Source of the DNA: Deltaproteobacteria bacterium
Lineage (GTDB): Bacteria; Myxococcota_A; Polyangia; Fen-1088
Direction: 5' to 3'
Assembly: GCA_033763315.1 (NCBI GenBank)
Contig: JANRKS010000019.1
Location: 448,001-512,000 of the forward strand
DNA length: 64,000 nt
How positions within the stretch are numbered: the first letter of the stretch is position 1; each line of letters begins with the position of its first letter. The position numbers were made by a program, and so were the translations under genes. This document shows positions 1 through 46,361 of this stretch, one piece after another. The notes below the pieces were generated by a model. It saw only the letters and a program-made list of their open reading frames with translations. It did not search any database and was not told where the DNA came from.

Positions 1-246
1 GTGTTGGACGGCGCGTTTGTCATCCGCGAGGACGGCGTGGTTTTGGCGGCGGGGCGATACCTCAACTTCGACGAACAAAACGTGCAGGTGCCGCTGGGGT
101 TGGGCGCTCGTCACATGGCTGCGGCCGGCATCAGCACACAGACCGAGGCCATTGCGGTGGCCGTATCGCAAACGTCGGGGGTCGTGCGCGTGTTCAAAAA
201 GGGGCGTGCCGTGCTGGAATTGGCGCCGCGCACCCGCCGCGGCTAA
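1..246 (+). CDS. Diadenylate cyclase (DisA_N/DAC) domain protein, 3' part; truncated by window edge
   Basis: DAC motifs DGA (LDGAFVI) and GxRHxAA (GLGARHMAAAGIS), followed by AVSQTSG. Confidence 0.8.
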   Translation: MLDGAFVIREDGVVLAAGRYLNFDEQNVQVPLGLGARHMAAAGISTQTEAIAVAVSQTSGVVRVFKKGRAVLELAPRTRRG

Positions 247-1889
247 GGCGCGGGCAGCACAACACGGAACAAGCCCGCTGGGTCCGTAACGGTTTCTGCG
301 CGCAGCACCGCCGGAGCGGTGAGAGGCCCTTCGTAGACCATCACGCGGCACGCGCCACACGGCGTTTGCAGTGGTGTGACGACCTTGCCTTGGGCGACAC
401 GACCGGACGGCAAGGTGAGGTTCAGCAACAACCCTTCGTTGCTTATCGTCGCGTTCCAAACCGTGAAGGGAATGGCTTCGCCTTGAGGAGGCCTCACCTC
501 CACGCGAAACACGCCTGCGTCCACTCGCAGGCGGAAGGCCCCCCCGGCGTCTGTGGTTGTAACCGCGTCGCCCAGCCAATGGGGAACCCCGCAGTCCATC
601 GTGCCCGGCAATGGCCCCAGTCGAACGGCAGTGACCACGGCGCCCCTCAACGGTGACAGGTCCGCTCGCTTCAACACGCCGGCCAAAGCGGGCCTTCGCG
701 GAAGTTCGAGGGCGGCCGTGGTGGGCACGTTCGTCGAGTCGGAGGCTGCAGGCCCCACGCCGAACGACCGCACGCACGACGACGCCGCCTCCGAACCGCT
801 GGGGCTCACCACCTGCACCGCGTATTGGCGTACGCCTTCGAGCGTCCCCGCAATGAGTGGGACATCGACCGTTCCATCAGCGCCTGCTTGAACGTCCTGC
901 CCGTAGCGGGCAGACACGCCGACGCCGGTAGAAGGCAGTTTGGTCTCAAAGCGCAGCAAAGCCGCCACAACCGGCGTGTACGCTCCCATCGAATCCACCG
1001 CGACGACTGGCACACGGAATAGTTGTGGCGTGGGATGCGCTGGGAACCGAAGAACGCCGGCGTCCGTGGCCGCGGGTGGGAGCGCGTAGAACAAACTGGG
1101 CGCGGGGCCTGTTCCTGGCAAACCTAACTGTAGCACGGCCGCATCGGTCGCAGGGTCGCTAGCCCGGGTAAATGTGACACGAAAACGGCCGTCGGCACCT
1201 ATCGGTGCCTTTGCGCTCACCAGCTGACCGTCGCGGAACACTTGCGCCACATAGCCGACCGCACTTTGGTCGAACTCTGTCCGAACGCTGCCTTCCACAA
1301 CACGAAGTTCCGCCAGTGGGGGCAACAAAAGTTCCATGCGCTCCTGCAGAGCCAAGGTGTGAGCCGAAGGGGGCGTCACGGTGTCAACCGGCGAGCGTGG
1401 CAGCACGACGACCGTCGCCACTTCTTGCGCCCGCGTTTGCGGCACAGACAAAGTAAACGCAGCGCCACCTCCCATCACCGCGATCGCTGCCACCGCGTTA
1501 AAGAGCAAAGGGGGGGCGCCTGGAACGAGCGAAGGCAGTTGTGCACTGACGGCCAATTCACCCTGCGAAAGCTGCGCGAACTGCGACGTCGGGGCGGCCT
1601 TCACTGTGCCCGACACGCTCAGCCTGGCCGACAGGGGCAAAGGCGTTACAGAACTTGCGCCAAACACCGCGTTGGGAAACTCGGTGATGGCCGCCTCCAA
1701 GCCCGGTGCGGGAAAGACCGCGACATGCAACAACCGCGGGCCCGGCTCCTTCGGCACACACGTTTTAGCCAAGCAGGTCTCGGAAACGGAACATTGGCTA
1801 TCACTGCCGCAACCGCCCGCCATCGGTTCCGTGTTGCAGGCACCAAGAGCCCAGACGCTGGCAGCGACCACAGCGCCCATCCCCTTCAT
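243..1889 (-). CDS. Putative lipoprotein with carboxypeptidase-regulatory-like beta-sandwich repeats
   Basis: Lipobox-like ALGAC, short Cys-rich segment (CGSDSQC...C...C) and repeated TDxxGxF strands; start at 1889 gives an ATGA overlap with the upstream gene. Confidence 0.6.
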   Translation of the reverse strand: MKGMGAVVAASVWALGACNTEPMAGGCGSDSQCSVSETCLAKTCVPKEPGPRLLHVAVFPAPGLEAAITEFPNAVFGASSVTPLPLSARLSVSGTVKAAPTSQFAQLSQGELAVSAQLPSLVPGAPPLLFNAVAAIAVMGGGAAFTLSVPQTRAQEVATVVVLPRSPVDTVTPPSAHTLALQERMELLLPPLAELRVVEGSVRTEFDQSAVGYVAQVFRDGQLVSAKAPIGADGRFRVTFTRASDPATDAAVLQLGLPGTGPAPSLFYALPPAATDAGVLRFPAHPTPQLFRVPVVAVDSMGAYTPVVAALLRFETKLPSTGVGVSARYGQDVQAGADGTVDVPLIAGTLEGVRQYAVQVVSPSGSEAASSCVRSFGVGPAASDSTNVPTTAALELPRRPALAGVLKRADLSPLRGAVVTAVRLGPLPGTMDCGVPHWLGDAVTTTDAGGAFRLRVDAGVFRVEVRPPQGEAIPFTVWNATISNEGLLLNLTLPSGRVAQGKVVTPLQTPCGACRVMVYEGPLTAPAVLRAETVTDPAGLFRVVLPAP

Positions 1890-2410
1890 TGACATGCTTT
1901 CTTCACGTTCCACGTCAACCGCAACACGCGCGCGGTTTCAGGCACCACATCAAACGGAAACTCTGAAGATGGAGATTCTTCAAACCCCCGATCGGAAACC
2001 ACCAACATCGCACGGTGCTCTGATCCGCCCACGAGATCGCGAAAACAGATGGGCTTGAACCTAACCACGCGCGTGCGCACTTCCGCGCCGCCCGCAGAGG
2101 GTTCCAAGATCTCACCATCGAACCGTCGGCTCACCAGCCTGGAATAGGGCGGATAGTTAAATAGCCACCGCAGTGACAAGCGATCTTGTGGATTCGGATC
2201 CGCAAGCGTCACCACGATCTCATCGTTTTCGCCCACTGGGGATCCAATGGGTGGCGACACGTTCACCACGTACGGCGAAAGGTTTGGCTCAGGATCCTGG
2301 AACTCAGGCGACACGGGAAGAATGCAGGCGCAAGGCATCAACGCCACGGCCAACGTCACGGCCCAACGTCGCCAGCGAACCACCTTTGATGTGCCGCCCA
2401 AAAACTGCAC
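1886..2410 (-). CDS. Putative lipoprotein, unknown function
   Basis: Basic N-terminus, hydrophobic stretch and PCAC; co-oriented and overlapping with the downstream gene. Confidence 0.55.
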   Translation of the reverse strand: MQFLGGTSKVVRWRRWAVTLAVALMPCACILPVSPEFQDPEPNLSPYVVNVSPPIGSPVGENDEIVVTLADPNPQDRLSLRWLFNYPPYSRLVSRRFDGEILEPSAGGAEVRTRVVRFKPICFRDLVGGSEHRAMLVVSDRGFEESPSSEFPFDVVPETARVLRLTWNVKKACQ

Positions 2411-2435
2411 CGCTCACATCTTAACGCGAACGCCG

Positions 2436-4265
2436 CTATCGATCCCAGGCTTCGTCCGAAGCATTTTCGCCGCCCGCGGGCAGCGGCCCGTCTTCCTTTT
2501 CCAGGTGACGGAAAATGGTGCGCGGATCCACGCCCAGATCGCGCGCGGTCTTCGTGCGGTTGCCATCGTTGAGCGCCAAGATCTCGTTGATGTACTCGCG
2601 CTGGAATTTTTCCTTGGCCTCGTTCAAAGGCAGGATAGGGGGCAGATCCGTCGGCAGAAGCCCCAGATCTTCGGGACCCAGCAGTGCCTTGTCGGCCAGC
2701 ACCACCGCTTTTTTGATCCGGTTTTCAAGCTCCCGGATGTTGCCCGGCCAGTTGTGCCGCTTCAGCGAAGCGATGGCACCAGGTGAATAACCCTTCACCT
2801 TGCTGCCGTATTCGGGCGCATACCTGCCGAGCATGTAGCGAGCCAGCATGACTATGTCTTCGCCACGCTCGCGCAGCGCCGGCAGGTGCAACTGCACCAC
2901 GTTCAGACGGTAATACAGATCCTCCCGGAACCGGCCGTTGCGTATCTCTTCTTCGAGGTTGCGGTGGGTGGCCGCGATGACTCGGATGTCGACCTGCTCT
3001 TGTTTGTTGTCACCCACGCGGGTCACAACCCGCTCCTGCAACGCGCGCAGGATCTTCACCTGCAGCGACATCGGCATCTCGCCAATCTCATCCAGGAACA
3101 ACGTGCCGCCGTTGGCCGATTGAAAGCGGCCCACCTTATTGGTCACGGCACCCGTAAAGGCGCCTCTGACATAACCGAACAGTTCCGACTCCAGCAGGTT
3201 TTCGGGAATGGCACCGCAATTGATGGTAACGAAGGGCCCCTTGGCGCGCGCCGATCGGTTGTGAAGCTCGTGCGCGATGAGCTCCTTGCCCGTGCCCGTT
3301 TCGCCCGTGACCAACACCGAAATGTCGGTGGCCGAGACTTTCTGTACCTTCCGAAACACCTCTTGCATCGGTGGGCAAGAGCCCACGATCTCGCCAAAGC
3401 GCATGCGCTCCAGGTGTTCCAGCAACGAACGTTTGTCGAGGCTCAGTTCGTTCACCATCAAGGCGTTGCGAATGATGAGCGACGCCTGTGCCGCGAAGAT
3501 CGAGAGCAGTTCAAGATGCGTGTCATCGAACAAGCGGGCGACGTTGTCGTTGCCCACGTAGATCACGCCCAGCAAGTCGCCACGCTCCAGCATCGGCACG
3601 CACATCACCGAAGTCAGCTTCAGGTTCACCACCGAAGCGGCCGTGCGGAAGCTGTCGTCGTTGAGCGCATCTGAAACGATGATGGCCTTCTTCGTTTCCA
3701 CCACCTTGGCCAAGATGGAATCCGAAAGGTGGCTAATCGCGTTCGCGATGCTTTCGCGCCGCAGGTTGCGCGCCACCTTCACCACGGGCTCGCCTGATTC
3801 CACCAGCACGATGAAGCCTTTGTCAGCGTTGCTGACTTGAATCACCATGTCGATCAGCGATTCCAGCAGCGCGGGTACCTCATAGTTGCCCATCAACTGT
3901 TGAGAAAACTCGAACAGTTTCTTGTATGAGTTCAGCTCGGCAATCGTTTTTGCAGCCACGTCGTCGGAAACGGGGGTGTCGTAAAGCGAGAACTCGAGCT
4001 CGGCTGGCCCCATCCGCACGCGATCCTCGTGTGCCAAACGATGCTTGGTGCGCTTGCGGCCGTTGACGAACATCTCGGCGCCGCGCTCAAGCACCGCCAA
4101 GTGAAAGTCGCGCCCGTCAAAGTTGATGTGGGCGTGGGTATCACCCAGCAGGGGATCGGGCAACACCACGTCGCAGTCCTCGCCCCGCCCTAAGGACGTG
4201 AGCTTCTTATAGATGTGATAGACCTTGACGCCTGACGCGGGCAGATGAATTTTCAGCGTTGCCAT
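2436..4265 (-). CDS. Sigma54-dependent enhancer-binding protein with FHA, GAF, AAA+ and Fis-HTH domains
   Basis: FHA (LGRGEDCDVVL...HAHI), GAF, Walker A GETGTGKE, GAFTGA, Walker B FLDEIGE, FREDLYYRL, WPGNIREL and C-terminal HTH. Confidence 0.93.
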   Translation of the reverse strand: MATLKIHLPASGVKVYHIYKKLTSLGRGEDCDVVLPDPLLGDTHAHINFDGRDFHLAVLERGAEMFVNGRKRTKHRLAHEDRVRMGPAELEFSLYDTPVSDDVAAKTIAELNSYKKLFEFSQQLMGNYEVPALLESLIDMVIQVSNADKGFIVLVESGEPVVKVARNLRRESIANAISHLSDSILAKVVETKKAIIVSDALNDDSFRTAASVVNLKLTSVMCVPMLERGDLLGVIYVGNDNVARLFDDTHLELLSIFAAQASLIIRNALMVNELSLDKRSLLEHLERMRFGEIVGSCPPMQEVFRKVQKVSATDISVLVTGETGTGKELIAHELHNRSARAKGPFVTINCGAIPENLLESELFGYVRGAFTGAVTNKVGRFQSANGGTLFLDEIGEMPMSLQVKILRALQERVVTRVGDNKQEQVDIRVIAATHRNLEEEIRNGRFREDLYYRLNVVQLHLPALRERGEDIVMLARYMLGRYAPEYGSKVKGYSPGAIASLKRHNWPGNIRELENRIKKAVVLADKALLGPEDLGLLPTDLPPILPLNEAKEKFQREYINEILALNDGNRTKTARDLGVDPRTIFRHLEKEDGPLPAGGENASDEAWDR

Positions 4266-4352: not shown

Positions 4353-5402
4353 TCAGAACCGCAAAGCCAAGCCTGCGCCCAGGCGGTCGCCGACCATCGC
4401 TGGGAACAATGACACCTTGACGCCCTCGTGTGGCAGCGGCTTGGTGCCAGAAACGGGCACCAAACGAGGCGAGCCGATCATCACGACGTCCTCGTAGTGC
4501 AACAAAGCGTCCACCACGCCCCAGGTGGCAACGGCGAAAAAAAGGCCCCCCGAGACAAGCTGCACGTTCAACAACAGCGCCGAACGTTTCTCGGCCGTGC
4601 GATCCACGTCCTCGGACGCACAATCGCCCGAGGCGCCGCCCGTCACCGCGGGAGTTTTCTTGCACCGCAACGTGTAGTTGGTGCCATACAATAAGAAGTT
4701 CGTGGTGAAGGCCGCCAGTGACACGGCGGCCAGGGCTGATTCCGCCCCCATGAACATCCATCCCTTGCTGGCCTGCCCGTTTTGAAACTGGCCCGCACCG
4801 AAGGGAATGAGCGCCACGGCCAAAGAGTGCCGCTGGTAGTTGCGCTCAAGGATCTGTTGCGGCCGCGGCTTCACCCGCTGGGCCTCCGCCTTCTCAGCCT
4901 CATGGCGCCGCCGCTCAAGGGACGCGATCTGCGCCTCTTGGTCGCGCAAAATCTCGTTGAAGAAGTCGACCACCCGGGGCGGGTCAAGCAGCGGATCGAA
5001 ACGATAATCAGGGCGCAATTCCAGCAAGCGCAGGAACTCTTGGCGGGCTTCGGTCGGCTGGTTCTCAAAGAGGTGCGCCACGCCCAACATGCGGTGCGAC
5101 CGCACCACCTGGCTCTCCTCGTCGAAACGGATGTCGGGGTAGAGCATCGGCCGCAGCAGCTCGATCGCGCGGGCGTATTCGCCGCGATCAAAAGCGATGC
5201 GGCCGCGTTCAAAGGTTTCGGCCGCGGTTGCAATGGGCGGTCGATCTGGCGCCAGCGTGGGTTCGGGCTCAGGCGGCGGGGGCGTCTGCACACGGGCCGG
5301 CTTTGGCTTGGGCTTCGGCGCCGGAGCCGCGCGCGCGTGTTCAACCCAAATCAGGGTACACAAGGCACACGTGGCAAGGCAGCACGAAAGGGACGGACGC
5401 AT
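4353..5402 (-). CDS. Secreted tetratricopeptide-repeat protein with hydrophobic C-terminal domain
   Basis: Signal peptide, Pro-rich linker, TPR-like helices (AFDRGEYARAIELL), PFGAGQFQNG segment and C-terminal ...LALRF. Confidence 0.7.
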   Translation of the reverse strand: MRPSLSCCLATCALCTLIWVEHARAAPAPKPKPKPARVQTPPPPEPEPTLAPDRPPIATAAETFERGRIAFDRGEYARAIELLRPMLYPDIRFDEESQVVRSHRMLGVAHLFENQPTEARQEFLRLLELRPDYRFDPLLDPPRVVDFFNEILRDQEAQIASLERRRHEAEKAEAQRVKPRPQQILERNYQRHSLAVALIPFGAGQFQNGQASKGWMFMGAESALAAVSLAAFTTNFLLYGTNYTLRCKKTPAVTGGASGDCASEDVDRTAEKRSALLLNVQLVSGGLFFAVATWGVVDALLHYEDVVMIGSPRLVPVSGTKPLPHEGVKVSLFPAMVGDRLGAGLALRF

Positions 5403-5423
5403 CAGAATCTGGGTTTGCGGCGC

Positions 5424-7271
5424 TTAGGGCAGCTCAACGGTAATGGTTTTGGCTTCACCGGGCGTGACGTTGAGCTCCTGCATCACGGGACGATTCCTCT
5501 CATCCACCACTGTAACAATCAAACTCTTTCTCAAATCATCGTCTGCGAAAAACGGCACGCGCACAAGTTGCCCTGGCACGGCCGCGAACTGCCATTTGGA
5601 GGTCCCCCCGACGCTGCTCAAAAGCACGCTCGCTTTGCTGCCGGCCGGGGTCACTTTCACGATCAACGCGGCTGGCTGGCCCTGCAGGCGTGCTGTGATG
5701 TGATCGTTCACCGGGCGATACTTGTTCGGACCCACGGTCACCCTTGCCGCATAAAAACCATCTTTGCGAAATTCAATGATGTGTTCGCCGTCCCATGGCA
5801 CTGAAAGCTGGTGGTTCTCGGGGCCGTAATCGAACTGTTTCACGCCGTCCAAGAAAACGGCCACGGCTTGGGGGTTGGGCCCCAAGGTGAAACGCACCGG
5901 CGGTGCAAGCGCGGGCGCCACAGGAGGCTCCGTCACAACCGCCGGCTCGGGCACCGAATGGACCGCGGTGCGTGTTCTCTTCGGAGAGCCTACGGGTGCC
6001 AAAGCGATCGGTGAGGGCGAGGGCGCCGCCGGCTCGGTGCGCGGGGGCAACGCCGCCGCGACTTCAGTTTTTGGCGGCGCAGTGTTGTTTGGCACGGTCT
6101 GCTGGCTGGCAGCCCCCGTGACGACTTTTGTTGGAAGAGGGTCGGGCACCAGCCGGAACACCAACGCGGTTCCCGACACCAAAACAGCCGTCGCAAACAC
6201 GCCCACCAAGGTACGACGCAGCCGCTGCCCCCGTTCAAGGGCACGCACAGCCGTCAACGCCGCCGGGTAATGCGGGTCCAGCGCCAGGGCACGATTCCAC
6301 AATTCGATCGCCAAAGCCGTGCGCTTGTTGCCCAATGCGGTTTTGCCCGCCTCCGTCAACGTGGCCAGCATGCGGGGTTTCAAATCCGCCGCGTAAATTT
6401 CAGGGGCGGCGAAGAACTTATGCAGTTCCTGGCGCGGGTCGACCAAGCCAGCCTGGGCCACGTACTCGCGCAGATCGTCGGCCAACGCTTTGGCTGTGGG
6501 GTAACGGTCGTCCGGCTCCCTGGCCAAGGCGCGGGAAATGATTTTGGTCAGCTGTGCGCCGATCAGCTGGTTTTTGCTGCGTGGATCCGGATAACGCGCA
6601 TCGGTGATGCGCTTGAACACCTCGTGCGGGTTTCGGCCGGCAAAGGGCAGGGCGCCCGTCGCCAGCTGGTACAGAATAATCCCCAAGGCAAAGACGTCGG
6701 TACGCACGTCCACTGAGCGACCTTCGATAAGTTCGGGGGCCATGTACGCGGGCGAGCCGATCAACTGGCCCGTCACGGTCATACGCTCCATGTCCATCAC
6801 TTGGGCAACACCAAAGTCCATCAGCTTCAGCAAGCCGTCTCGCCGAACCATGATGTTCTCGGGCTTGATGTCTCGGTGAAGGATCCCAAGGCCGTGCGCG
6901 TGGGCCAGGGCGTTCGCCACCTCGATGACCATCATCGCCGCCAGTTCGGGGTAAACCAGATGGCGGTCTGTGAGCCATTGTTTGAGGGTGAGCCCTTCGA
7001 TGAACTCGGTGACGATGTAAGCCGAAGCCGAGTCGGGGCCCGAGTAGTCGAAGATCTGCACGATGTTCTCGTGCTGCAACTTCGCCACCGCCTGTGCCTC
7101 GCGCCGCAGACGCGCTTTTGATTCGGCCTCGGCGAGCAAATGGCTGTGCAGCACCTTCACCGCGACGTCGCGCTGAAGGCTTTCGTCGCGCGCTCGATAC
7201 ACGACGGCCATACCGCCTTGGCCAACTTCTTCAAGGACGCGGTAGCGAGAGGGGATCTCCGCGGGAAGCAA
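5424..7271 (-). CDS. Hanks-type Ser/Thr protein kinase with one TM helix and an extracytoplasmic PEGA-like region
   Basis: GQGGMAVVY, VAVK, HRDIKPEN, DFG and YMAPE all intact; TM helix then Pro-rich linker. Confidence 0.93.
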   Translation of the reverse strand: MLPAEIPSRYRVLEEVGQGGMAVVYRARDESLQRDVAVKVLHSHLLAEAESKARLRREAQAVAKLQHENIVQIFDYSGPDSASAYIVTEFIEGLTLKQWLTDRHLVYPELAAMMVIEVANALAHAHGLGILHRDIKPENIMVRRDGLLKLMDFGVAQVMDMERMTVTGQLIGSPAYMAPELIEGRSVDVRTDVFALGIILYQLATGALPFAGRNPHEVFKRITDARYPDPRSKNQLIGAQLTKIISRALAREPDDRYPTAKALADDLREYVAQAGLVDPRQELHKFFAAPEIYAADLKPRMLATLTEAGKTALGNKRTALAIELWNRALALDPHYPAALTAVRALERGQRLRRTLVGVFATAVLVSGTALVFRLVPDPLPTKVVTGAASQQTVPNNTAPPKTEVAAALPPRTEPAAPSPSPIALAPVGSPKRTRTAVHSVPEPAVVTEPPVAPALAPPVRFTLGPNPQAVAVFLDGVKQFDYGPENHQLSVPWDGEHIIEFRKDGFYAARVTVGPNKYRPVNDHITARLQGQPAALIVKVTPAGSKASVLLSSVGGTSKWQFAAVPGQLVRVPFFADDDLRKSLIVTVVDERNRPVMQELNVTPGEAKTITVELP

Positions 7272-8205: not shown

Positions 8206-9320
8206 GGGTGCGCGTTGTTCAAGTGTTCACGCAGCAGATCGCGGCCAAAATCTCCGTTGAAGTCGCGCCAAATGGTGTGCACGTGGTTGGCGCCATTTTG
8301 GGTGTTGTCGTATTCCACCAAGAACGTGGGGCCACTGATGCGGTAATAGTGCGGATCCCCGCGCTTGATGCCGCCGGCCCAACCGAACCGCAGTTTGTCG
8401 GCACCTGCCGCTTTGACCTTTGCCAAACGTTCGGCAGCCAAAGCCGGATTCAGCGTGCCCGCAAAGACACCAAGCAGTGCCACGAGGGTGCTCTTGTGTT
8501 TCGCATCCAGTGAAGCCGCACTGATGCCAACTTCGGGCAGGGGCTTCACTTCGCTGGCGGGGCCGGTCACAATTTCGGGCGGCGCCGTTTGATCGAAGAT
8601 GGCCTTCGCGCGCAGCTCGTCTGAAAGCGACATCAAGAACTTGCGCCCCTCGTCCTCCTCGGTGCCAAGCGCGCGTGTGCCTTTCATCGGCCCCTCACGC
8701 ACCTCACCGGGGTTGGCGCCCAAGAACGACGGCGACGTGGCCACGAGGTGCCCGTTAACGATCGTAAAGTTCAATGAGATGTGATGCCCTTCGACCTTCC
8801 ATCCCCAGTTACCGGCGGGCGTGGGCGTGCCGAATACCGAGAACCAATATTTCTCCGGGTCGCGCTTGATGGGATCCTTCTCCATATCCCGCAACACTGT
8901 CTCAAGCGTCATAATGAGCTTCGCTTTCGCGTAGCCGGGAACGCTGAGGCCTGTCTTCAATAAGGCATGTGCGAGCGTGCGTTGCTGGGGCGACATGGCC
9001 TTGATCGGCAGGCCCGTGCGGTCCTTCGGAATGAAATGCCACTCTGTCCGTCCCGGAACATCGAAGGCAAACACCGCGCGCGCTTTTTCTTCGGCCGACA
9101 ACGCCGCAACGAAATTATCCGCTGCCTTCGCCATCGCGGCGGCGGGTCCGGCGGGGCCGCGTGCGATCACCCAAGCCGCTGACAGTGCCGTGGCGAAGAA
9201 GCCCATAAGGCCGACCAAGCCCAACGCCAACCAACCCCGGTGGGGCGACACAAACCAACCCCGGTGGGGAATCACACCTGACATGCGCATAAGAGGACTC
9301 AACGGCTTTTCGGCCCGCAC
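8202..9320 (-). CDS. DUF3500 domain secreted protein (start uncertain, possibly 9290 or 9284)
   Basis: WHFIP, WGWKVEGHHISLNF, PSFLGANP, YYRISGP and HVHTIWRD motifs. Confidence 0.8.
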   Translation of the reverse strand: MRAEKPLSPLMRMSGVIPHRGWFVSPHRGWLALGLVGLMGFFATALSAAWVIARGPAGPAAAMAKAADNFVAALSAEEKARAVFAFDVPGRTEWHFIPKDRTGLPIKAMSPQQRTLAHALLKTGLSVPGYAKAKLIMTLETVLRDMEKDPIKRDPEKYWFSVFGTPTPAGNWGWKVEGHHISLNFTIVNGHLVATSPSFLGANPGEVREGPMKGTRALGTEEDEGRKFLMSLSDELRAKAIFDQTAPPEIVTGPASEVKPLPEVGISAASLDAKHKSTLVALLGVFAGTLNPALAAERLAKVKAAGADKLRFGWAGGIKRGDPHYYRISGPTFLVEYDNTQNGANHVHTIWRDFNGDFGRDLLREHLNNAHP

Positions 9321-9416
9321 GTCAACCGCCCGACGCGCGGGAGGCCAAAGTCACGTGGCCCAACGCACGCAGGTGATACCGCGCAACTTTGTTGTCTTGG
9401 CCGCGATAACGGGATC

Positions 9417-10151
9417 ATGACCGCCTTGCAATGGCTCAAACTGCAAAGCCGCGAGCTGCTTTGGCCCTCGCGCTGTGCCGCATGCGACGCCTTCGTCGCT
9501 CCTGACGTGGCCTTCTGTGCCGCTTGTGAGCCGTCGATCACCGCCCTGGGGCAAGCATGCACGCTGTGTGCGATGCCCAGATCTGCATTGGGTGAAGGCG
9601 AGGGCGAGGGGCCTTGCCAGCGGTGCCAACGCCAGCCGTGGCGCTTCGCATCCGTGCGGGCCGCTGTTTTGTATGGCGGCGCCATCAGCACCGCCCTTGT
9701 GCGCTTTAAGCACGGTCGCCAAGACCTGGTGCATGCGTTGGCCCCACTGGTGTGGGCTGGTTTGGCAGCCACGCCGGATTTGGCGGAGGCCCTGATCGTG
9801 CCTGTGCCTTTGCACCCTCGACGTTTGCGACAACGCGGGTTCAATCAGGCCTTCGATTTGGCCCGCGCCGCCACAGAGCAAGCGGCTGCCGGTTTGCGCC
9901 TGGCGCTTGCCCCTTTGTGCATGCGGCGTCTCACCGACGGTCTGCACGTGGCCCAAGAAACGGCGGCCGCGCGACGGGCGCGAGCGCAAGGTGCTTTTGC
10001 GGTCGCACAGCCCAGGCGCGTCGCTGGGCGTCCCGTCATATTGGTCGACGATGTCCTCACGACGGGCGCCACCAGTGGCGCTTGTGCCGAAGCCCTGCTG
10101 GCTGCGGGCGCCACATCGGTCAGCCTCGTGGTGGCCGCCCGCACCGTCTAA
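9417..10151 (+). CDS. comF: ComF family protein (zinc ribbons plus PRTase domain)
   Basis: Four CxxC pairs, VPVPLH, RGFNQA and LVDDVLTTGAT. Confidence 0.88.
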   Translation: MTALQWLKLQSRELLWPSRCAACDAFVAPDVAFCAACEPSITALGQACTLCAMPRSALGEGEGEGPCQRCQRQPWRFASVRAAVLYGGAISTALVRFKHGRQDLVHALAPLVWAGLAATPDLAEALIVPVPLHPRRLRQRGFNQAFDLARAATEQAAAGLRLALAPLCMRRLTDGLHVAQETAAARRARAQGAFAVAQPRRVAGRPVILVDDVLTTGATSGACAEALLAAGATSVSLVVAARTV

Positions 10152-39880: not shown

Positions 39881-40357
39881 CTAGACGGGACCGTAACGGC
39901 GCACTTCCACATACAGTTTTTGCGTGTCATCCCACGCAAATTGCACCGAGCCACGCACCCCATCGGCCTGCACGTCCACCACCAGATATTCGACGGGATA
40001 AGCGGGCTCGTCACCCATTTTTGCGGCGGCTTGATCGGTGTCGCTGAAGTAGGCGCCCACGTTGGCGTGGGAGTGGTAAATCAGCTTGGCCGGCTCGTTG
40101 CCGCGCAGGCTCTTTTGCAAGCGGAAGATGTCGCCCGTATCGAAGTTGTAGGCGGTGTGGGCGTCGCGAGAGAATTGGACCGGATCTTCGGCGTGCAGAT
40201 CATCTTGAATGTTGCGGCAGATCTGGGCGCGGTTGGCGTCTGGGGCATCCTTCGGTCCAAAGATGATGCCGCAGCACTCTTTCGGATATTCGGTGCGCGC
40301 GTGGGCGTAGATCTCAGCCAGGGCGTTCGTGGCCACTACCGGATGTTCGTTCGACAT
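39881..40357 (-). CDS. JAB/MPN+ (JAMM) metallopeptidase, Mec-like
   Basis: YPKECCG glutamate and HSH-x7-S-x2-D (HSHANVGAYFSDTD). Confidence 0.9.
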   Translation of the reverse strand: MSNEHPVVATNALAEIYAHARTEYPKECCGIIFGPKDAPDANRAQICRNIQDDLHAEDPVQFSRDAHTAYNFDTGDIFRLQKSLRGNEPAKLIYHSHANVGAYFSDTDQAAAKMGDEPAYPVEYLVVDVQADGVRGSVQFAWDDTQKLYVEVRRYGPV

Positions 40358-40366
40358 GTGGGTGTT

Positions 40367-41410
40367 CTAGCGGGCGGGCGTCGTTTCGCTTGCTTGGGTT
40401 TTGGGTGACTCTTGCGCGCTGATGGGCGCCTCGAAATAGCGATCCGCGCGGTCAGGGAAAACGGTGACGATCACGCCTTTTTGGCCGGCCGCATGCAGCT
40501 GCTTGGCCAAGCGAACCGCTCCCGCCAAAGCCGCGCCTGAGGAGTGGCCCACCAAAATGCCGGCCTCGGCGCCCAACCGATCGCTGACGTCCCATGCCTC
40601 ATCCGTTGGCATCGACAGAACGCCTGTGAGCTGGTCGGGGTGATAGATCTCGGGCACAAGTGAGCTCGCCATGTGCTTGAGCCCTTCGAGGCCATGCAAG
40701 GCATCGTCGGGTTCCACTGCCCAAATCTCGACTTTGTTGTTGTGTTCGCGCAGACCGCGGCCGGTGCCCATGATGGTGCCACTCGTGCCAATGCCGGCAA
40801 CGAAATGGGTGACGCGCCCTTGCGTCTGCTCCCAGATCTCTTGCGCGGTGGTGAGGTAGTGGCCACGCGGGTTCGATTCGTTGCCGTACTGGTCGGGATA
40901 GAAGAACTTTTCTGGATGCTCACCCACAAGCCTGCGGCACAAGCGAATCGCGCCGTCTGAGCCCTCGAGTTCCGACGACAGCTCAAGGTGGGTGCCAAAC
41001 GCTTCGGTGATTTTCCGACGCGCCCATGACACGTTGCCAGGCAAAACCAGCGTGATGGAGTAACCCAGGGCCGCACCGATCATTGAATAGGCAATGCCCG
41101 TGTTGCCCGACGAGGCATCGATGAGCGTGCGATCCTTTGTGAGCCGTCCGGCCGTCACGGCGTCGCGAATCATTTGGACGGCGGCACGATCCTTGACCGA
41201 CCCGCCTGGATTCATGAATTCGCACTTGGCCCAGATCTCCACGCCGGGAAAGTCTTTGTCGAACGAGCTGAGCCGCACAAGCGGCGTGTGGCCGATAAGC
41301 TGCGTGACGTCGTCCGCCACGCGCGCACGAGCGCGTTCAACAGCCAGTTCGTCCACGTCGTAGTCGAGCGTGGAAGGTATGGATGACGGTGCGAGGGAAG
41401 TGGTGGCCAT
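40367..41410 (-). CDS. PLP-dependent cysteine synthase family protein (CysM-like)
   Basis: NPGGSVKDR, SSGNTG, GTSGT and HGLEGLKHM; next to the JAMM gene. Confidence 0.88.
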   Translation of the reverse strand: MATTSLAPSSIPSTLDYDVDELAVERARARVADDVTQLIGHTPLVRLSSFDKDFPGVEIWAKCEFMNPGGSVKDRAAVQMIRDAVTAGRLTKDRTLIDASSGNTGIAYSMIGAALGYSITLVLPGNVSWARRKITEAFGTHLELSSELEGSDGAIRLCRRLVGEHPEKFFYPDQYGNESNPRGHYLTTAQEIWEQTQGRVTHFVAGIGTSGTIMGTGRGLREHNNKVEIWAVEPDDALHGLEGLKHMASSLVPEIYHPDQLTGVLSMPTDEAWDVSDRLGAEAGILVGHSSGAALAGAVRLAKQLHAAGQKGVIVTVFPDRADRYFEAPISAQESPKTQASETTPAR

Positions 41411-41435
41411 GGTGACGCGAGGGTGAATGTGAGGC

Positions 41436-42125
41436 TTAAGGAGCGGGCCAAGCGATGTTATGCGTGATTGGATGGTTTTCGCGCGTCGAAAACGGCACGT
41501 TTAGGTGTCGAATGACGCCTGTGGCCGCGGCTTCGGCAGACACACCCGGGCCACGGCCAAGCAAAGACCACAACACTTCGGTTGCGGCCAGGGTGCCCGC
41601 CAACACGTCGGTGCCGTGATCGATGGCAGACACATCCGACTGTGGGTGACTCGGCCCGGGCGGCACGCTGGGAACGTCGCTGTCGGGGCCTCCCGGCGCC
41701 GGTCGGAGGGATAGCAGGTCTAAAGCGCCCGAATCTTTGCGCCACCGGGCCACAACGGCGGGGACGCGCAGGCGTCGGCACGCTTCCACAAAGGAATCGT
41801 CCGCAAAGCTCGCCCGCAGGGCTACATCGCACCCGGCAAGCGCCGCAGCCCACGCCGATCCCGCTGAGGCGACTTTGACTTCGTCAAAGCGTGCAGCCGG
41901 GGCAAGCGCCGCCAGCGATGAGGCGTCCGCCGCGGCTGGCAGCAGCACCCGGAAGGCCCGCACGCCCGCGCACGCCAAATAAAGCGTGGCCGTCTCAAGG
42001 GCCAATGTGCCCTCGGCGTCCACAACCAACGCCACCGTTGCGTCCAAAATGCGTTGCTGGCCCCTGGATCCCACTTCGGGAAGGGCCACATGACGGATGA
42101 AACGGCGGGCGTCGGCGAAATCCAT
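41436..42125 (-). CDS. Degenerate ThiF/MoeB-fold protein, predicted catalytically inactive
   Basis: Keeps RFIRHVALPEVGSRGQQRI, YLACAGV and GTLAATE; lacks GxGxxG, the SNLxRQ loop and CxxC pairs. Confidence 0.7.
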   Translation of the reverse strand: MDFADARRFIRHVALPEVGSRGQQRILDATVALVVDAEGTLALETATLYLACAGVRAFRVLLPAAADASSLAALAPAARFDEVKVASAGSAWAAALAGCDVALRASFADDSFVEACRRLRVPAVVARWRKDSGALDLLSLRPAPGGPDSDVPSVPPGPSHPQSDVSAIDHGTDVLAGTLAATEVLWSLLGRGPGVSAEAAATGVIRHLNVPFSTRENHPITHNIAWPAP

Positions 42126-42182
42126 GGCAAGCACAAGCCGCCAACCTACTTTGCCGGGCGGGGCAGAGCAGGGGCTTTGGTA

Positions 42183-42458
42183 TTAGCGGCCGCCAGCGAT
42201 CGCGGGAACGATCGAGATTTCGTCGCTGTCTTTCACAGCGGTTTCAAGATTCTGTTGAAAGCGAATGTCTTCGTCGTTGGCGAAAATATTCACGAAGCGA
42301 CGCACTTTGCCTTGGTCGTCGCAAATGCGTTCTTTGATGCCGGGGTATTGCGTTTCAAGCGACGCAATCACCTGCGCGATGTTGGCGCCGCTGGCCTGGA
42401 CTTCCTCAAGACCGTTCGTGAGCTTGCGAAGTGGTGTGGGAATGCGGACGGTGGCCAT
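42183..42458 (-). CDS. Ubiquitin-like sulfur carrier (MoaD/ThiS/CysO family) ending in GG-R
   Basis: VRIPTPLR...FVNIF..DEDIRF...SIVPAIAGGR. Confidence 0.92.
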   Translation of the reverse strand: MATVRIPTPLRKLTNGLEEVQASGANIAQVIASLETQYPGIKERICDDQGKVRRFVNIFANDEDIRFQQNLETAVKDSDEISIVPAIAGGR

Positions 42459-42515
42459 GGAAGATGTCTCCTTAGTGTTTTCAGACGAGATGTGATGAGC
42501 AGGCGGTGCCAGAGG

Positions 42516-43817
42516 TTACGAGACGTAACCGGTAAAGGCCCCGGAACCAACCAATTGATCGAAGTCGCCCAACTTGGGGCCGATGAGGCTGGGCTTCCGC
42601 ACGCGGTCAACCAGCGGATCTTGCGTTTTGAGGCCTTGGCCTGTGATGGACAAAACCACCGGACCATCGTTGGAACCAATGCGGCCTTGTTGCACCAATT
42701 TTTTGGCGGCACCCAAAGTCACGCCGCCTGCCGTTTCGGTGAAAATGCCCTCGTTTTCCGCCAGAGCCAAGATGGCTTCGCAAATATCGTCATCGTTGGG
42801 CAACGCGGCGAAACCGCCTGAACCCAGCATTGACTGGCGGGCGTAGATGGCGTCGGCAGGGTTGCCGATGGCCAAGCTTTTGGCGATCGTTTGCGGGGTT
42901 TTCACCGGCTTTACGTAATCACGCTCCTCCACAACCATCGACGCGATCGGGCCGCAGCCGGCCGCTTGTGCGCCGTGGATCTTGGTGGCGCGTGATTCCA
43001 CAAAGCCAAGCTTCGTGAATTCCTTGAACGCCTTATCGATCTTGGTGATGAGCGAGCCACCGGCCATGGGCACAACCACGTGCGCCGGCACTTTCCAGCC
43101 CAGTTGCTCGGCGATTTCATAGCCAAATGCCTTTGAGCCTTCGGCGTAAAACGGCCGCAAGTTCACGTTCACGAAGCCCCAACCGTACTTGCCCGCGATC
43201 TCGGAGCACAAGCGGTTGACGTCATCGTAAGTGCCGTTGACGCCCACGACGCGCGCGCCGTAAACGCTGGTGGCCAGAACCTTTGCAGGTTCGAGGTCGT
43301 GCGGAATCAAAATGACGGCGGGCATACCCACGGACGCCGCTTGCGACGCGGTGGCATTCGCCAGGTTGCCTGTGCTGGCGCACGCCACAACCTTGATACC
43401 GAATTCGCGTGCCTTGCTGATCGCCACAGACACCACGCGGTCCTTGAAAGACAGGGTGGGGTAGCTAACCGAATCGTTCTTAAGCCACAGCTCTTTGACG
43501 CCCAGCCATTTGGCCAAGCGATCGGCCTTCACAAGCGGGGTCATTCCGGTTTGCGCACCCACCGAGGGTGGGCCATCAAGCGGCAACAGCTCAGCGTAAC
43601 GCCACATCGAGTTCATGCGGTTCTCGATCGCTTTGCGCGTGAGCGACTTCGCGATGGCCTCGTAGTCGTAGGCGATTTCCAATGGCCCAAAGCAGAACTC
43701 ACACACGTGAATCGGTTGCTTCGGGTACTCGCTGCCGCACTCGCGGCACTTCATGGCTTTGACGAAAGACACTTCGCTTTGGTTCTTGCTGAGGTTATGG
43801 GCTGACACGGCGTTCAT
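42516..43817 (-). CDS. Threonine-synthase-like PLP enzyme, sulfur-carrier-associated subfamily
   Basis: N-terminal CRECG...CEFCFGPLE, PLP lysine SFKDR, ASTGN and TIAKSLAIGNP; directly upstream of the carrier. Confidence 0.88.
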   Translation of the reverse strand: MNAVSAHNLSKNQSEVSFVKAMKCRECGSEYPKQPIHVCEFCFGPLEIAYDYEAIAKSLTRKAIENRMNSMWRYAELLPLDGPPSVGAQTGMTPLVKADRLAKWLGVKELWLKNDSVSYPTLSFKDRVVSVAISKAREFGIKVVACASTGNLANATASQAASVGMPAVILIPHDLEPAKVLATSVYGARVVGVNGTYDDVNRLCSEIAGKYGWGFVNVNLRPFYAEGSKAFGYEIAEQLGWKVPAHVVVPMAGGSLITKIDKAFKEFTKLGFVESRATKIHGAQAAGCGPIASMVVEERDYVKPVKTPQTIAKSLAIGNPADAIYARQSMLGSGGFAALPNDDDICEAILALAENEGIFTETAGGVTLGAAKKLVQQGRIGSNDGPVVLSITGQGLKTQDPLVDRVRKPSLIGPKLGDFDQLVGSGAFTGYVS

Positions 43818-44578
43818 GGGTTCTCGCTCCGACGGTGCAAGGGCTGGCAGGCCGGGGCGCCGTAGGCCCGAGCGTCCAAGCCGGTGATCGCAGGCGCATC
43901 ACCACACACCCGACAAGCGGGATTGCGGCGGAAGGTGATGGTGCGCATGGTCATGGCGGGCGAATCATAGCGGATGAGACGGCCGGAAAAGGCTGGTGTC
44001 TTACCACAAAGTAAACGAATCGCCTCGTTCGCTTGTGCAGATCCCAAAACCCCCGGCACGGGTCCCAAAACGCCCGCTTCGGCGCAGTTGGGCGCGTCGG
44101 CGCCAGAAGGTAGCTCCTCGAACAGGCACCGGTAACAAGGTCGCCCCCCCGCTGGCACCGTGATGAGCTGGCCCATCGTGCCCACAGCTGCGGCGTGCAC
44201 AAAGGCTTTGCCCCCAAGCACGCACGCATCGTTGACCAAGAACTTGGTTTCCAGGTTGTCGGAGCCGTCCAGAACCACGTCGTGCGCGGCGACCAACGCG
44301 GCGGCGTTCAGGGTTGAAAAACGTTCACGGCGCGGCGTGACCGCGGTTTGCGGAAAACGCTTGCGTAAAAAACCGGCGATGGAATCCACTTTGGGATGGC
44401 CGATGAACGCGTCCGTGTGAAGCACCTGGCGGTGCAGGTTCGACTCATCGACCAAGTCGTCATCCAGCACTGTAAGTTCCGCCAGGCCGGCGGCGACCAA
44501 CGTTAAGGCTGCGCCACAGCCCAAACCACCAGCGCCAATTAACAACACCCGGCCGGGCAACAACGCAGAAGCACTCAC
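43814..44578 (-). CDS. MoeB/ThiF E1-like adenylyltransferase lacking the N-terminal helix and with no rhodanese domain
   Basis: GAGGLG, DDDLVDESNLHRQ, DGSDN, CYRC, CAEAGV and CRVC; GTG at 44578 overlaps the cysK stop (GTGA). Confidence 0.9.
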   Translation of the reverse strand: MSASALLPGRVLLIGAGGLGCGAALTLVAAGLAELTVLDDDLVDESNLHRQVLHTDAFIGHPKVDSIAGFLRKRFPQTAVTPRRERFSTLNAAALVAAHDVVLDGSDNLETKFLVNDACVLGGKAFVHAAAVGTMGQLITVPAGGRPCYRCLFEELPSGADAPNCAEAGVLGPVPGVLGSAQANEAIRLLCGKTPAFSGRLIRYDSPAMTMRTITFRRNPACRVCGDAPAITGLDARAYGAPACQPLHRRSENP

Positions 44579-45564
44579 GAGCGGGAACCCGGCTCCGCCA
44601 GACCCGGGAACTGTTTGGCGAACGCTTCGTCGGTGCTGAAGTAACGTTCCCCGGTGTCGCACAAAACAGTGACCACCGTTTTGCCTGGACCAAGCGCGGC
44701 CGCCACTTCCAAAGCCACCTTCACTGACGCGCCAGCCGAGATGCCCACCAGCAAGCCTTCTTTGCGGGCCAACGCCAACTTGGTGCGTTGCGCGTCTTCC
44801 TCGGTCACGCGACGAACGTCCGACAACAAACTGCGATCCAGAATGTCTGGAACGAAGCCAGCGCCGATGCCGTCGATGCGGTGTTCGCCGGGCAGTCCGC
44901 CCGATAGCACGGGGCTGCGATCGGGTTCGACGGCGATCAACAACACGTTGGGGTTTGCCCTGCGAAACGCCTGACCCACGCCGGTGATCGTGCCGCCCGT
45001 GCCAACGCCGGCCACGAACGCATCAGGCTTGCGGCCGTCCAACGTTTGCAGCTGCGCCAAGATCTCCGGCCCGGTGGTGTGCCTGTGGGCCGCCGGGTTG
45101 GCTGGGTTCTTGAATTGTTGCAACATGACGAACGAAGGGTTTTCTTCGCATAGCTCAAGAGCCTTGCGAACGGCGCCGTTCATCACGTCAGCGGCGGGCG
45201 TGAGATGCAGTTCCGCGCCATAGGCCTTCAACAACATGCGACGCTCGAGCGACATGTTGTCGGGCATCGTGAGGATGAGCCGGTAGCCTTTGACGGCGCA
45301 CACCAACGCCAGGCCCACGCCCGTGTTGCCAGAGGTGGGCTCGACCAACACCGTCTTACCAGGCACCAAGCGTCCCTCGCGTTCGGCGGTTTCGATCATG
45401 GAAAGCGCGACGCGATCTTTAACGCTGCCACCAGGGTTGAAATGCTCGCACTTGGCGAACACATCCGCCGACGCTGCGCCGGGCAGATTTCGCAAGCGCA
45501 CAAGCGGGGTGCCGCCGATCAGCGCCAGCATGTTGCGAACCACAGGAAGGTCAGGGCGGGACAC
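44575..45564 (-). CDS. cysK: Cysteine synthase A
   Basis: NPGGSVKDR, EPTSGNTG, GTGGT, HRIDGIGAGFVP and DTGERYFST. Confidence 0.93.
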   Translation of the reverse strand: MSRPDLPVVRNMLALIGGTPLVRLRNLPGAASADVFAKCEHFNPGGSVKDRVALSMIETAEREGRLVPGKTVLVEPTSGNTGVGLALVCAVKGYRLILTMPDNMSLERRMLLKAYGAELHLTPAADVMNGAVRKALELCEENPSFVMLQQFKNPANPAAHRHTTGPEILAQLQTLDGRKPDAFVAGVGTGGTITGVGQAFRRANPNVLLIAVEPDRSPVLSGGLPGEHRIDGIGAGFVPDILDRSLLSDVRRVTEEDAQRTKLALARKEGLLVGISAGASVKVALEVAAALGPGKTVVTVLCDTGERYFSTDEAFAKQFPGLAEPGSRS

Positions 45565-45565
45565 G

Positions 45566-45925
45566 TTAAGGCCTTTCGCCGATGTCTACGATGCTGCACG
45601 CATTGATGGGGTCAAGTCCCAGCTTCTCAGCTTCAGCGATGAGGGCGTCGCTTTCCGCGCCGGGGTTCACCCAAAATTCCTTGGGGGCCTTGTCACGAAT
45701 GGCAGGCAGCAACGCCAAGCCGACGGCCGGGGGCACATAAAGCGAGATGCGGTCGATGGCTTCGCTGATGTCTTCCAAACGCCTGACCACGGGCAGCCCT
45801 TCAATCGTTTCTTCGCTTGGGTTCACCGGGATCACTTTCCAACCCTGGCGTTGGTAAGCACGAACGGCTTTGTTGCCGAACTTCTTCGGATCATTTGAAG
45901 CGCCCACAACCACGACGGTAGGCAC
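45566..45925 (-). CDS. CoA-binding domain protein (YccU-like)
   Basis: VVGASNDPKKFG...VIPVNP...WVNPGAE...C; GTG at 45925 just after the upstream stop. Confidence 0.85.
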   Translation of the reverse strand: MPTVVVVGASNDPKKFGNKAVRAYQRQGWKVIPVNPSEETIEGLPVVRRLEDISEAIDRISLYVPPAVGLALLPAIRDKAPKEFWVNPGAESDALIAEAEKLGLDPINACSIVDIGERP

Positions 45926-45926
45926 C

Positions 45927-46262
45927 TTACAGGCCTTCCGTTTCGGCGGCCGTGCGGCCGCACTCTGAACATCGGCCTTGAGCGTCCAGCAGGCCAGTGC
46001 AGGCGCCATCAGGACACAAGCGGCGGCTTGGATCCAGGCCGGACAGCTCTGACGAATCGTCGGCGGAAGCGGAAAACACAACCTCCCCCGCCTCAGGCGC
46101 AAGATTCGTCTCGGGCCCGAGCGAGGCCACGGTGGGTGCATTCACAAACGTTCGGCGGCATTCGGCGCACCAGCCGGATTCGTCCAACACGCCCGTGCAG
46201 GCACCATCCGGACACAGCCGGCGGGTGGTCGGATCAAACGCGGTCTCTTCGGTCGCACTCAT
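45927..46262 (-). CDS. Small protein with two tandem Cys4 (zinc-ribbon-like) motifs
   Basis: RRLCPDGACTGVLDESGWCAEC and RRLCPDGACTGLLDAQGRCSEC; abuts the next gene. Confidence 0.7.
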   Translation of the reverse strand: MSATEETAFDPTTRRLCPDGACTGVLDESGWCAECRRTFVNAPTVASLGPETNLAPEAGEVVFSASADDSSELSGLDPSRRLCPDGACTGLLDAQGRCSECGRTAAETEGL

Positions 46263-46361
46263 GGGTGTGGCAAATCCAAACAATCAAGGAAAACATTCAG
46301 GAAAGCGAGGCCCAGGCTTTGAAAGCCGCCCCGGAACAAGGCATATAGTGACGCACTCGCC

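Follow-up and report, generated by a model that had tools for sequence, protein, structure and literature searches.

A truncated MoeB-like adenylyltransferase and a degenerate ThiF-fold partner: a putative heterodimeric E1 in a bacterial sulfur-carrier operon

Introduction

How could an E1-like adenylyltransferase work once it has lost the helix that its own kind exchanges between subunits? This question is raised by an operon in a 64,000-nucleotide stretch of DNA (hereafter the window) from a Deltaproteobacteria bacterium of the class Polyangia (Myxococcota_A), which spans positions 448,001 to 512,000 of contig JANRKS010000019.1 in assembly GCA_033763315.1. MoeB and ThiF are textbook symmetric homodimers; the E1 enzymes of ubiquitin, SUMO and NEDD8 combine an inactive and an active adenylation domain. 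In the MoeB, ThiF and Uba4 homodimers, an arginine of the N-terminal helix of one subunit sits at the gamma-phosphate of the ATP bound by the other. The window operon encodes, on the minus strand, a MoeB-like protein that lacks this helix (positions 43814-44578, hereafter MoeB-short) and a degenerate ThiF-fold protein that keeps it (41436-42125, hereafter the partner). An earlier interpretation of the same DNA, the original prediction, had proposed that these genes encode the two halves of an obligate heterodimeric E1 activating the neighbouring sulfur carrier. Here we examine this proposal through sequence profiles, related genomes, phylogenies and structural models.

Results

The catalytic chain lacks its N-terminal helix

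MoeB-short carries all the catalytic MoeB features listed in the original prediction, namely GAGGLG, DDD..ESNLHRQ, DGSDN, CYRC, CAEAG and CRVC, and its catalytic residues (G-loop, SNLxRQ, lysine, DxxDN, Cys4 and the CAEAG cysteine) are invariant in 18 orthologues. The GTG start at 44578 overlaps the stop codon of the preceding CysK gene as GTGA, and places the beginning of the 254-amino-acid protein 10 residues ahead of VLLIGAGGLG. The Pfam ThiF profile (PF00899) matches MoeB-short with 218 bits over profile positions 17-238 only. Similarly, a profile built from the 18 orthologues aligns with residues 31-249 only of the E. coli MoeB chain (E 1.9e-58), and with residues 28-246 of ThiF. As the alignment with MoeB starts at residue 31, the first ~30 residues, which bear the RYxRQ helix, are missing from MoeB-short, and the predicted absence of an RYxRH/Q...GQ segment at its N-terminus is thus borne out. 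Judged by its motifs and alignments, MoeB-short is confirmed as a MoeB/ThiF-type adenylyltransferase with every catalytic motif and without the arginine-finger helix. It scores below all NCBIfam equivalog cut-offs for MoeB, MoeZ and ThiF (best model NF006444, 246 bits versus 449), and it has no insertion relative to MoeB that could hold a catalytic-cysteine domain.

The frame of MoeB-short is open back to position 44662 in the window and reads RRSVRQ, and a start at this position had been put forward as an observation that could overturn the prediction. We rejected this start because the upstream frame is either closed in relatives or a shadow frame of CysK. Only 12 and 19 open codons precede the VLxIG motif in two of the relatives (L035 and L039, respectively), and an ATG is found 2-8 codons ahead of the motif in seven of the 18 orthologous loci of the same family. 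Where the frame stays open for longer, it crosses the CysK coding sequence out of phase; the RSxRQ-like strings found there lie at varying distances from the G-loop and result from reading the conserved CysK C-terminus in another frame. No RxxR[QH]...GxxGQ motif occurs upstream of the catalytic G-loop in these loci, and every readable MoeB N-terminus in this family (f1) is devoid of the arginine-finger motif.

A degenerate ThiF-fold protein keeps the missing helix

The 229-amino-acid open reading frame (ORF) of the partner carries RFIRHVALPEVGSRGQQRI, YLACAGV and GTLAATE, and lacks the G-loop, the SNLxRQ loop and the cysteine pairs, in agreement with the original prediction. GxGxxG, SNLxRQ and DxxDN are all absent from the window partner and from 16 aligned orthologues. 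The predicted loss of the zinc cysteines holds for the genus of the window but not more generally, as most partner orthologues from other genera keep a remnant of the zinc site (GPCPH...CxxCGG); no cysteine is conserved throughout the partner family.

The Pfam ThiF profile barely detects the partner (13 bits, E 0.058, under the cut-off of 28.1), the match being restricted to residues 14-93. A profile of 17 orthologues, in turn, aligns with residues 1-248 of E. coli ThiF (E 2.7e-15), its RfaRq lying over the RYSRQ of ThiF; it also aligns with Uba4 (RYSRQ) and MoeB, and weakly with SAE1, the inactive subunit of the SUMO E1 (E 0.0088). An AlphaFold2 model of the partner (pLDDT 84.2, pTM 0.84) retrieves ThiF with Foldseek (1zud, E 2.9e-10, TM about 0.6), then Uba4 and MoeB, with further matches to MccB, PaaA, Atg7 and SAE1 chains. 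Profiles and predicted structure together indicate that the partner is a ThiF-fold protein without nucleotide-binding motifs. What it keeps is the N-terminal RxxR[QH]..LPxxGxxGQ helix and the helices of the dimer interface. The two proteins also cover complementary parts of NF006444 (positions 124-213 for the partner, 145-376 for MoeB-short). NCBIfam has no model for the partner, which is currently either unnamed or labelled "hypothetical" or "ThiF family".

The partner was found in 21 of the 24 same-family genomes among 41 related genomes searched, with 31-55% identity and no internal stops. The ThrC-like marker of the operon is likewise missing from the three genomes without a partner, so that the whole operon was not found there. 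Eleven columns of the alignment of 17 sequences show no variation, of which seven fall in the N-terminal helix (R8, R11, L15, P16, G19, G22 and Q23), two in YLAxAG and two in GTLAAxE. The mean fraction of the majority residue is 0.76 over residues 7-24, compared with 0.51 over the full length of the partner and 0.69 in MoeB-short. A decaying, unconserved partner, which had been named as another observation that could overturn the prediction, is therefore not what we see: the gene is conserved in more than 40 genomes, with its conservation peak in the N-terminal helix. We rejected the partner as a pseudogene on the same grounds, its ORF being intact and free of internal stops.

Natural mini-partners of 148 and 100 amino acids occur in two genera, and both keep the N-terminal helix and the GxLAAxE helix. 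Three other families of the same class as the window have partners of 150-175 amino acids adjoining a truncated MoeB. Among the 54 best cluster representatives, none has SNLxRQ, and one fits a loose G-loop pattern. The partner of the window may start three codons earlier, at GTG 42134. In two genera, the partner ORF opens right after the ThiS stop (TAA/TAG TCC CTG AA..), and no ATG, GTG or TTG precedes the conserved helix (minus strand; L037, 7566-7590; L038, 5526-5550), which suggests a CTG start or coupled re-initiation.

Truncated MoeB and partner occur together in two distant lineages

In the class of the window, we surveyed the 41 related genomes and ran searches with the ThrC-like marker. 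Both features could be read in 22 genomes (split over two contigs in one of them), all 22 of which combine a truncated MoeB with a partner; in one further genome a partner is present and the MoeB N-terminus falls at a contig edge. In the genome G026, from the same class, the operon MoeB is full-length (RRYARQ...GQQ) and the partner is absent; the gap between ThiS and CysM encodes instead an ~80-amino-acid NIL-like protein.

Look-alikes in the ESM Atlas pointed to Candidatus Binatota, and one Candidatus Binatus genome (G188) contains two pairs of MoeB-short and partner. The operon of the first reads MoeB-short, ThrC-like, ThiS, CysM, NIL, partner. In the second (L240, G188:C80, positions 1-3540, minus strand), the two genes are adjacent and directly upstream of genes for a HAD-like hydrolase, an adenosine phosphosulfate (APS) kinase of the CysC type and an ATP-sulfurylase-like protein, with no carrier or PLP (pyridoxal phosphate) enzyme within view. 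We then sampled 41 genomes of the class to which G188 belongs (the Binatus class) and chose 20 loci in them by their MoeB-like match rather than by the partner. Fourteen combine a truncated MoeB with a partner and four have a full-length MoeB without partner; in one, the MoeB is full-length and the downstream region lies off the contig, and the last (in G232) carries two intact full-length copies. Together with seven earlier loci from six genomes, all truncated with a partner (genes adjacent in three), this gives 21 such loci in 20 genomes of the Binatus class.

Across the readable loci of both lineages, there is no truncated MoeB without a partner and no full-length MoeB with a degenerate partner; a full-length operon MoeB without partner is found in five operons. 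The expected co-occurrence of an N-truncated MoeB with a degenerate paralogue is thus without exception, in a census of genomes that are related rather than independent and in which the partner itself served to find the first batch of loci.

In G232 (L251, G232:C2, minus strand), the intact MoeB-like genes lie at about 5100-6064 and about 8900-9700. One occupies the catalytic position, and the copy at the position of the partner has GAGAVG, SNLHRQ, CYRC and CPVC. This operon looks like the state before degeneration. In Binatus-class operons, a NIL-like protein of ~80-105 amino acids ending in ...GV.VEPIE.NVIE separates CysM (or ThiS) from the partner (L239, 10318-10635; L263, about 9283-9594); in the only operon of the window's class with a full-length MoeB, it fills the gap between ThiS and CysM (L045, 1935-2236, minus strand).

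Phylogeny of the two proteins

A first tree was computed for 90 rows, after removal of eleven spurious shadow frames rich in arginine and of two partners of less than 140 amino acids. Catalytic proteins form a clade with 95% support, within which the truncated MoeBs of the two lineages are united (92) and the full-length G026 operon MoeB is their sister (89). Family-f1 partners form a clade with 100% support, and pairs within it mirror the MoeB-short tree. The end branch of the partner is about three times that of MoeB-short (0.71 versus 0.21). Degenerate sequences, including the metagenomic group A3 described below, make up a grade outside the catalytic clade, in which A3 mixes with the Binatus-class partners. 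Because the backbone is open and the branches of the degenerate sequences are long, the tree does not settle the origin of the partner. In a second tree, built from 60 catalytic cores with the N-terminal columns excluded, the truncation label changes three times, only one change being forced by well-supported branches, and the G232 paralogue at the partner position groups with canonical MoeBs (96).

A model of the complex

When MoeB-short and the partner were modelled together, the complex passed its controls, with ipSAE scores of 0.91, 0.91 and 0.92 in three runs versus 0.00 for the best of three controls. The partner has a pLDDT of at least 82 in the complex, and contacts agree between runs by at least 86%. 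In the calibration of the modelling tool, the ipSAE mark was reached by 58 of 80 complexes of known structure and by 2 of 110 mismatched pairs, counts that hold only roughly here because we used our own alignments. The modelled interface is that of a MoeB-type dimer: partner residues 7-12, 14-15 and 17-18, within the conserved helix, touch residues 45-52 of MoeB-short (ESNLHRQV). According to a review, the arginine of the SNLHRQ loop corresponds to the ATP-binding Arg73 of MoeB.

The operon and its other genes

The two genes belong to a tightly packed cluster of eight proteins on the minus strand (39881-46141). Its first conserved gene (45566-46141) encodes a CoA-binding-domain protein (Pfam CoA_binding_2, E 2.6e-28, residues 75-186) and adjoins the CysK gene, in synteny, in many related loci. 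A 118-amino-acid ORF (45927-46283, minus strand), which contains the motif RRLCPDGACTG.LD..G.C.EC.RT twice and resembles a double zinc ribbon, overlaps the CoA-binding ORF in its annotated 5' part; the true start of the CoA-binding gene is therefore probably downstream of 46141. Next come a CysK-type cysteine synthase (44575-45564; NCBIfam cysK, 402 bits, above cut-off; PALP, E 7e-79), MoeB-short itself, and a threonine-synthase-like (ThrC-like) PLP enzyme with an N-terminal Cys4 ribbon (42516-43817; PALP, E 8.8e-65; zinc-ribbon match at residues 23-47). The latter reaches 293.7 bits with the NCBIfam threonine synthase model NF006050, under the cut-off of 303. It would be a MetM-type, thiocarboxylate-dependent homocysteine synthase, and its gene is likely mis-annotated as a threonine synthase.

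The sulfur carrier (42183-42458, 91 amino acids) is ThiS/MoaD-like (Pfam ThiS, E 9.8e-17; NCBIfam SAMP1, 62.7 bits). Its C-terminus reads AIAGGR, and this GG-R ending implies that trimming is needed before adenylation. The carrier of the Binatus genome likewise ends in AIAGGR. Downstream of the partner, the cluster is completed by a CysM-type PLP enzyme (40367-41410; PALP, E 5e-65; NCBIfam cysM, 321.6 bits, under the cut-off of 394), which would act as a carrier-thiocarboxylate-dependent cysteine synthase, and by a JAMM/Mec-type metalloprotease (39881-40357; Pfam Prok-JAB, E 8.8e-17). The protease presumably trims the C-terminal arginine of the carrier and releases cysteine or homocysteine adducts. 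The JAMM gene is present in the window operon, and none was seen in the tabulated Binatus-class loci.

This gene content (a ThrC-like enzyme with a ThiS-like carrier, a JAMM protease and an E1) fits a pathway of the MetM/MetO type, and the operon as annotated suggests that thiocarboxylate routes to cysteine and to homocysteine have merged around a single carrier. Neither Pfam nor NCBIfam revealed an E2-like gene among the eight proteins, and the operon has no sulfurtransferase or rhodanese gene. A full-length fusion of rhodanese and MoeB (~400 amino acids) is encoded elsewhere in the same genome (contig C2, 288992-289699, L001). It is the only ThiF-family gene of this genome that matches the Pfam profile from position 1, and is closest to those of Nannocystis and Archangium metagenome-assembled genomes (63% and 58%). 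The ThrC-like marker occurs in only 2 of 151 genomes sampled from the phylum of the window, the operon being thus patchy there. In one related locus (L209, G006:C124, 1192-4575), ~3.2 kb are inserted between MoeB-short and the ThrC-like gene, and the end of the insertion is a duplicated fragment of the MoeB C-terminus (4411-4575).

Further candidate partners in metagenomes

Group A3 (P0055-P0100) consists of metagenomic ThiF-like proteins of 220-250 amino acids with an invariant L.D.QIERYSRQ..GxxGQ N-terminus. They keep both CxxC pairs and have no G-loop, SNLxRQ or DxxDN, and the nearest ESM Atlas clusters are mostly from Candidatus Binatota. Based on these motifs, A3 proteins may be further dead E1 partners. 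When genome contigs were scanned with A3, all 80 loci listed had a canonical G-loop and SNLxRQ, and none was degenerate; the 80 loci listed in a scan of metagenome contigs with P0056 (29-37% identity) were judged canonical from identity alone. Among the 151 genomes from the phylum of the window, A3 matches reached about 190 bits or less, mostly in ~400-amino-acid frames, and none exceeded the level of canonical MoeZ. In 41 sampled genomes from the phylum of G188, all that A3 yielded were N-terminal matches.

Discussion

We propose, with a probability of roughly 0.65, that MoeB-short and the partner form a functional heterodimeric E1 in which the partner supplies the N-terminal helix. That the pairing is strictly obligate is less probable than this. 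The two genes would encode the subunits of an asymmetric MoeB-type dimer. MoeB-short would provide a complete site for ATP/Mg binding and carrier adenylation, together with the zinc site, having lost the helix that acts in trans; the non-catalytic subunit, unable to bind ATP, would contribute the N-terminal helix and the dimerisation helices. The partner helix would then cover the SNLHRQ loop of MoeB-short, creating one complete active site per dimer. Once the JAMM protease has removed the terminal arginine of the carrier, the heterodimer would adenylate its GG end, and, after sulfur transfer, the carrier thiocarboxylate would feed CysM for cysteine and the MetM-like enzyme for homocysteine. 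We infer physical heterodimerisation, partner-dependent activity and the role of the arginine, as well as the pathway chemistry and the sulfur donor. As for the original prediction of an obligate heterodimer, conservation, co-occurrence and the complex model speak for two cooperating halves; obligateness, a critical arginine and descent from a single duplicated ancestor are not established.

Several observations weigh against our proposal. According to a 2026 paper (PMC13139853), catalysis does not require the arginine fingers of MoeB (Arg14) and ThiF (Arg11), so that MoeB-short might work as a homodimer. The same paper reports little effect of the R59A mutation in yeast Tcd1, which calls for caution in assuming an essential arginine in the window system. 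The arginines themselves vary at times: one cluster representative reads RRYGKQ and one partner RFGRN, and two of the 14 Binatus-class partners, both of which we found by eye, have H or I in place of the first arginine of RxxR but keep the second. The whole helix may matter more than the arginine, either by acting as a lid or by forming part of the interface. In addition, as MoeB and ThiF homodimer structures have been solved, the complex model may pass by likeness; it covers the heterodimer alone, and its pass amounts to likeness and does not rank the heterodimer against a homodimer. The association between truncation and partner may stem from as few as one truncation event. Finally, the full-length rhodanese-MoeB of the same genome could in principle pair with MoeB-short.

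Among alternative explanations, the most serious, which we nevertheless consider unlikely, is that MoeB-short is a self-sufficient homodimer and the partner an accessory factor that binds something else. As such it might assist the carrier, CysM, the MetM-like enzyme or a sulfur donor in the manner of a scaffold or chaperone, or it might be a regulator titrating MoeB-short. Inactive E1-like domains do serve as binding modules elsewhere, as in the cyclodehydratase partners of ribosomally synthesized and post-translationally modified peptide (RiPP) pathways. The non-essential arginine finger of MoeB and ThiF (PMC13139853) and the faster evolution of the partner, apparent from its longer end branch, are both compatible with such a role. 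However, an accessory factor leaves unexplained why conservation in the partner is highest in just the segment that MoeB-short has lost, why the partner is absent wherever MoeB is full-length, and why 100-amino-acid partners keep only the N-terminal helix and one interface helix. The absence of any cysteine conserved across the family argues against a sulfur relay in particular.

Much less probable is a pairing of MoeB-short with the rhodanese-MoeB encoded on contig C2, which would provide both the N-terminal helix and a persulfide and leave the degenerate protein with an unrelated role. The existence of this paralogue in a genome whose operon has no sulfurtransferase speaks for this pairing, but its gene is unlinked to the operon, the presence of the operon partner tracks the truncation, and the partner tree mirrors that of MoeB-short. 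We give even less credit to an annotation artefact, in which MoeB would really start at 44662 with an RSVRQ helix or the partner would be a decaying pseudogene: open as the RRSVRQ frame is in the window, it is short in relatives or else an alternative frame of CysK.

How does the proposed heterodimer compare with known systems? MoeB-short has the fold, the catalytic motifs and the Cys4 zinc site of the E. coli MoeB-MoaD and ThiF-ThiS systems, which also share a beta-grasp carrier ending in GG, and the predicted dimer interface is the same. The difference lies in symmetry: MoeB and ThiF homodimers exchange N-terminal arginine helices, whereas in the window only the second, inactive chain has the helix. 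With a catalytic chain lacking the helix and an inactive chain bearing it, one active site per dimer is predicted. Among eukaryotic E1s, the arginine of the inactive subunit completes the ATP site. The nucleotide site of Uba4, like that of MoeB, has been described to draw on the second subunit (Arg18 in Uba4), and a review describes SAE1-SAE2 and NAE1/APPBP1-UBA3 as pairs of one inactive and one active adenylation subunit (sources on Uba4, E1s, ubiquitin-like operons and GapMind are among PMC1779556, PMC7527816, PMC12355090 and PMC13759103 with its preprint). The window pair would have this combination in common with SAE and NAE, but lacks a catalytic-cysteine domain, a ubiquitin-fold domain and an E2, and its product would be a thiocarboxylate for biosynthesis instead of a conjugate. 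The partner resembles ThiF more closely than SAE1. An independent origin of the bacterial arrangement is most likely.

Two other systems resemble the proposed heterodimer. In the antiphage E1 BilD, the inactive domain supplies Arg9 to the active domain, and all known bacterial E1-like proteins except BilD are described as homodimeric in the same 2023 structural paper (PMC10557695). As proposed for the window pair, BilD is a bacterial E1 with a single active site and a key arginine from an inactive domain; unlike that pair, encoded by two genes within a sulfur-carrier amino-acid pathway, it fuses the inactive and active adenylation domains in one polypeptide, has a CYS domain, and works with an E2 in protein conjugation. 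In yeast Tcd1-Tcd2, which acts in ct6A formation, the degenerate subunit gives an arginine finger to the ATP site of the active subunit, as reported in PMC13139853. This is, as proposed for the window pair, a ThiF-family heterodimer with a degenerate subunit, but eukaryotic and with a tRNA substrate.

As to the pathway, Mycobacterium makes cysteine by the carrier-thiocarboxylate route of CysO, CysM and Mec. MoeZ is a single full-length E1 with a rhodanese domain, encoded away from the pathway genes. A homocysteine route through MetO, MetM, Mec and MoeZ has been described for Streptomyces in the GapMind work, which gives MoeZ as the E1 of the Mycobacterium and Streptomyces routes. The window operon has the same parts (a ThiS-like carrier, CysM- and/or ThrC-like PLP enzymes and a JAMM protease). 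It differs from the MoeZ systems in that a single operon with a single carrier serves both PLP enzymes, separate genes encode the active and the inactive chain of the E1, and there is no rhodanese.

The original prediction knew of no description of the arrangement for a bacterial sulfur-carrier system, and in the literature we searched, supplements being outside the search, we found no two-gene active/inactive E1 for a bacterial sulfur carrier. The accessible text of a 2006 survey of prokaryotic ubiquitin-like operons contains none of the terms "heterodimer", "two E1", "paralog" or "threonine synthase". A broader evolutionary reading, to which we give a little less than an even chance, is that a sulfur-carrier operon was the setting in which bacteria evolved E1 asymmetry independently, through duplication, degeneration and complementation. 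Under this tentative scenario, all stages would survive today: a lone full-length MoeB, seen in five operons; a pair of intact copies, as in G232; a truncated active chain with a dead chain of full size; and a truncated active chain with a mini-partner of 100-150 amino acids, which comprises hardly anything beyond the arginine helix and a single interface helix.

The pairing of MoeB-short and partner is conserved over dozens of genera in two distant lineages. If the broader evolutionary reading is true, the partner is obligate and there is exactly one active site per dimer. A two-gene E1 of this kind would make it possible to ask what the N-terminal helix and its arginine contribute in trans, whether one site per dimer brings an advantage, and how pseudo-enzyme partners become fixed. 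The system would be small, soluble and experimentally easy, with chains of about 230-250 amino acids and natural 100-amino-acid mini-partners, and would offer a natural minimal model for the rise of the inactive-plus-active design of ubiquitin, SUMO and NEDD8 E1s. It would also represent a second, probably independent, origin of E1 asymmetry, within ordinary sulfur-amino-acid metabolism.

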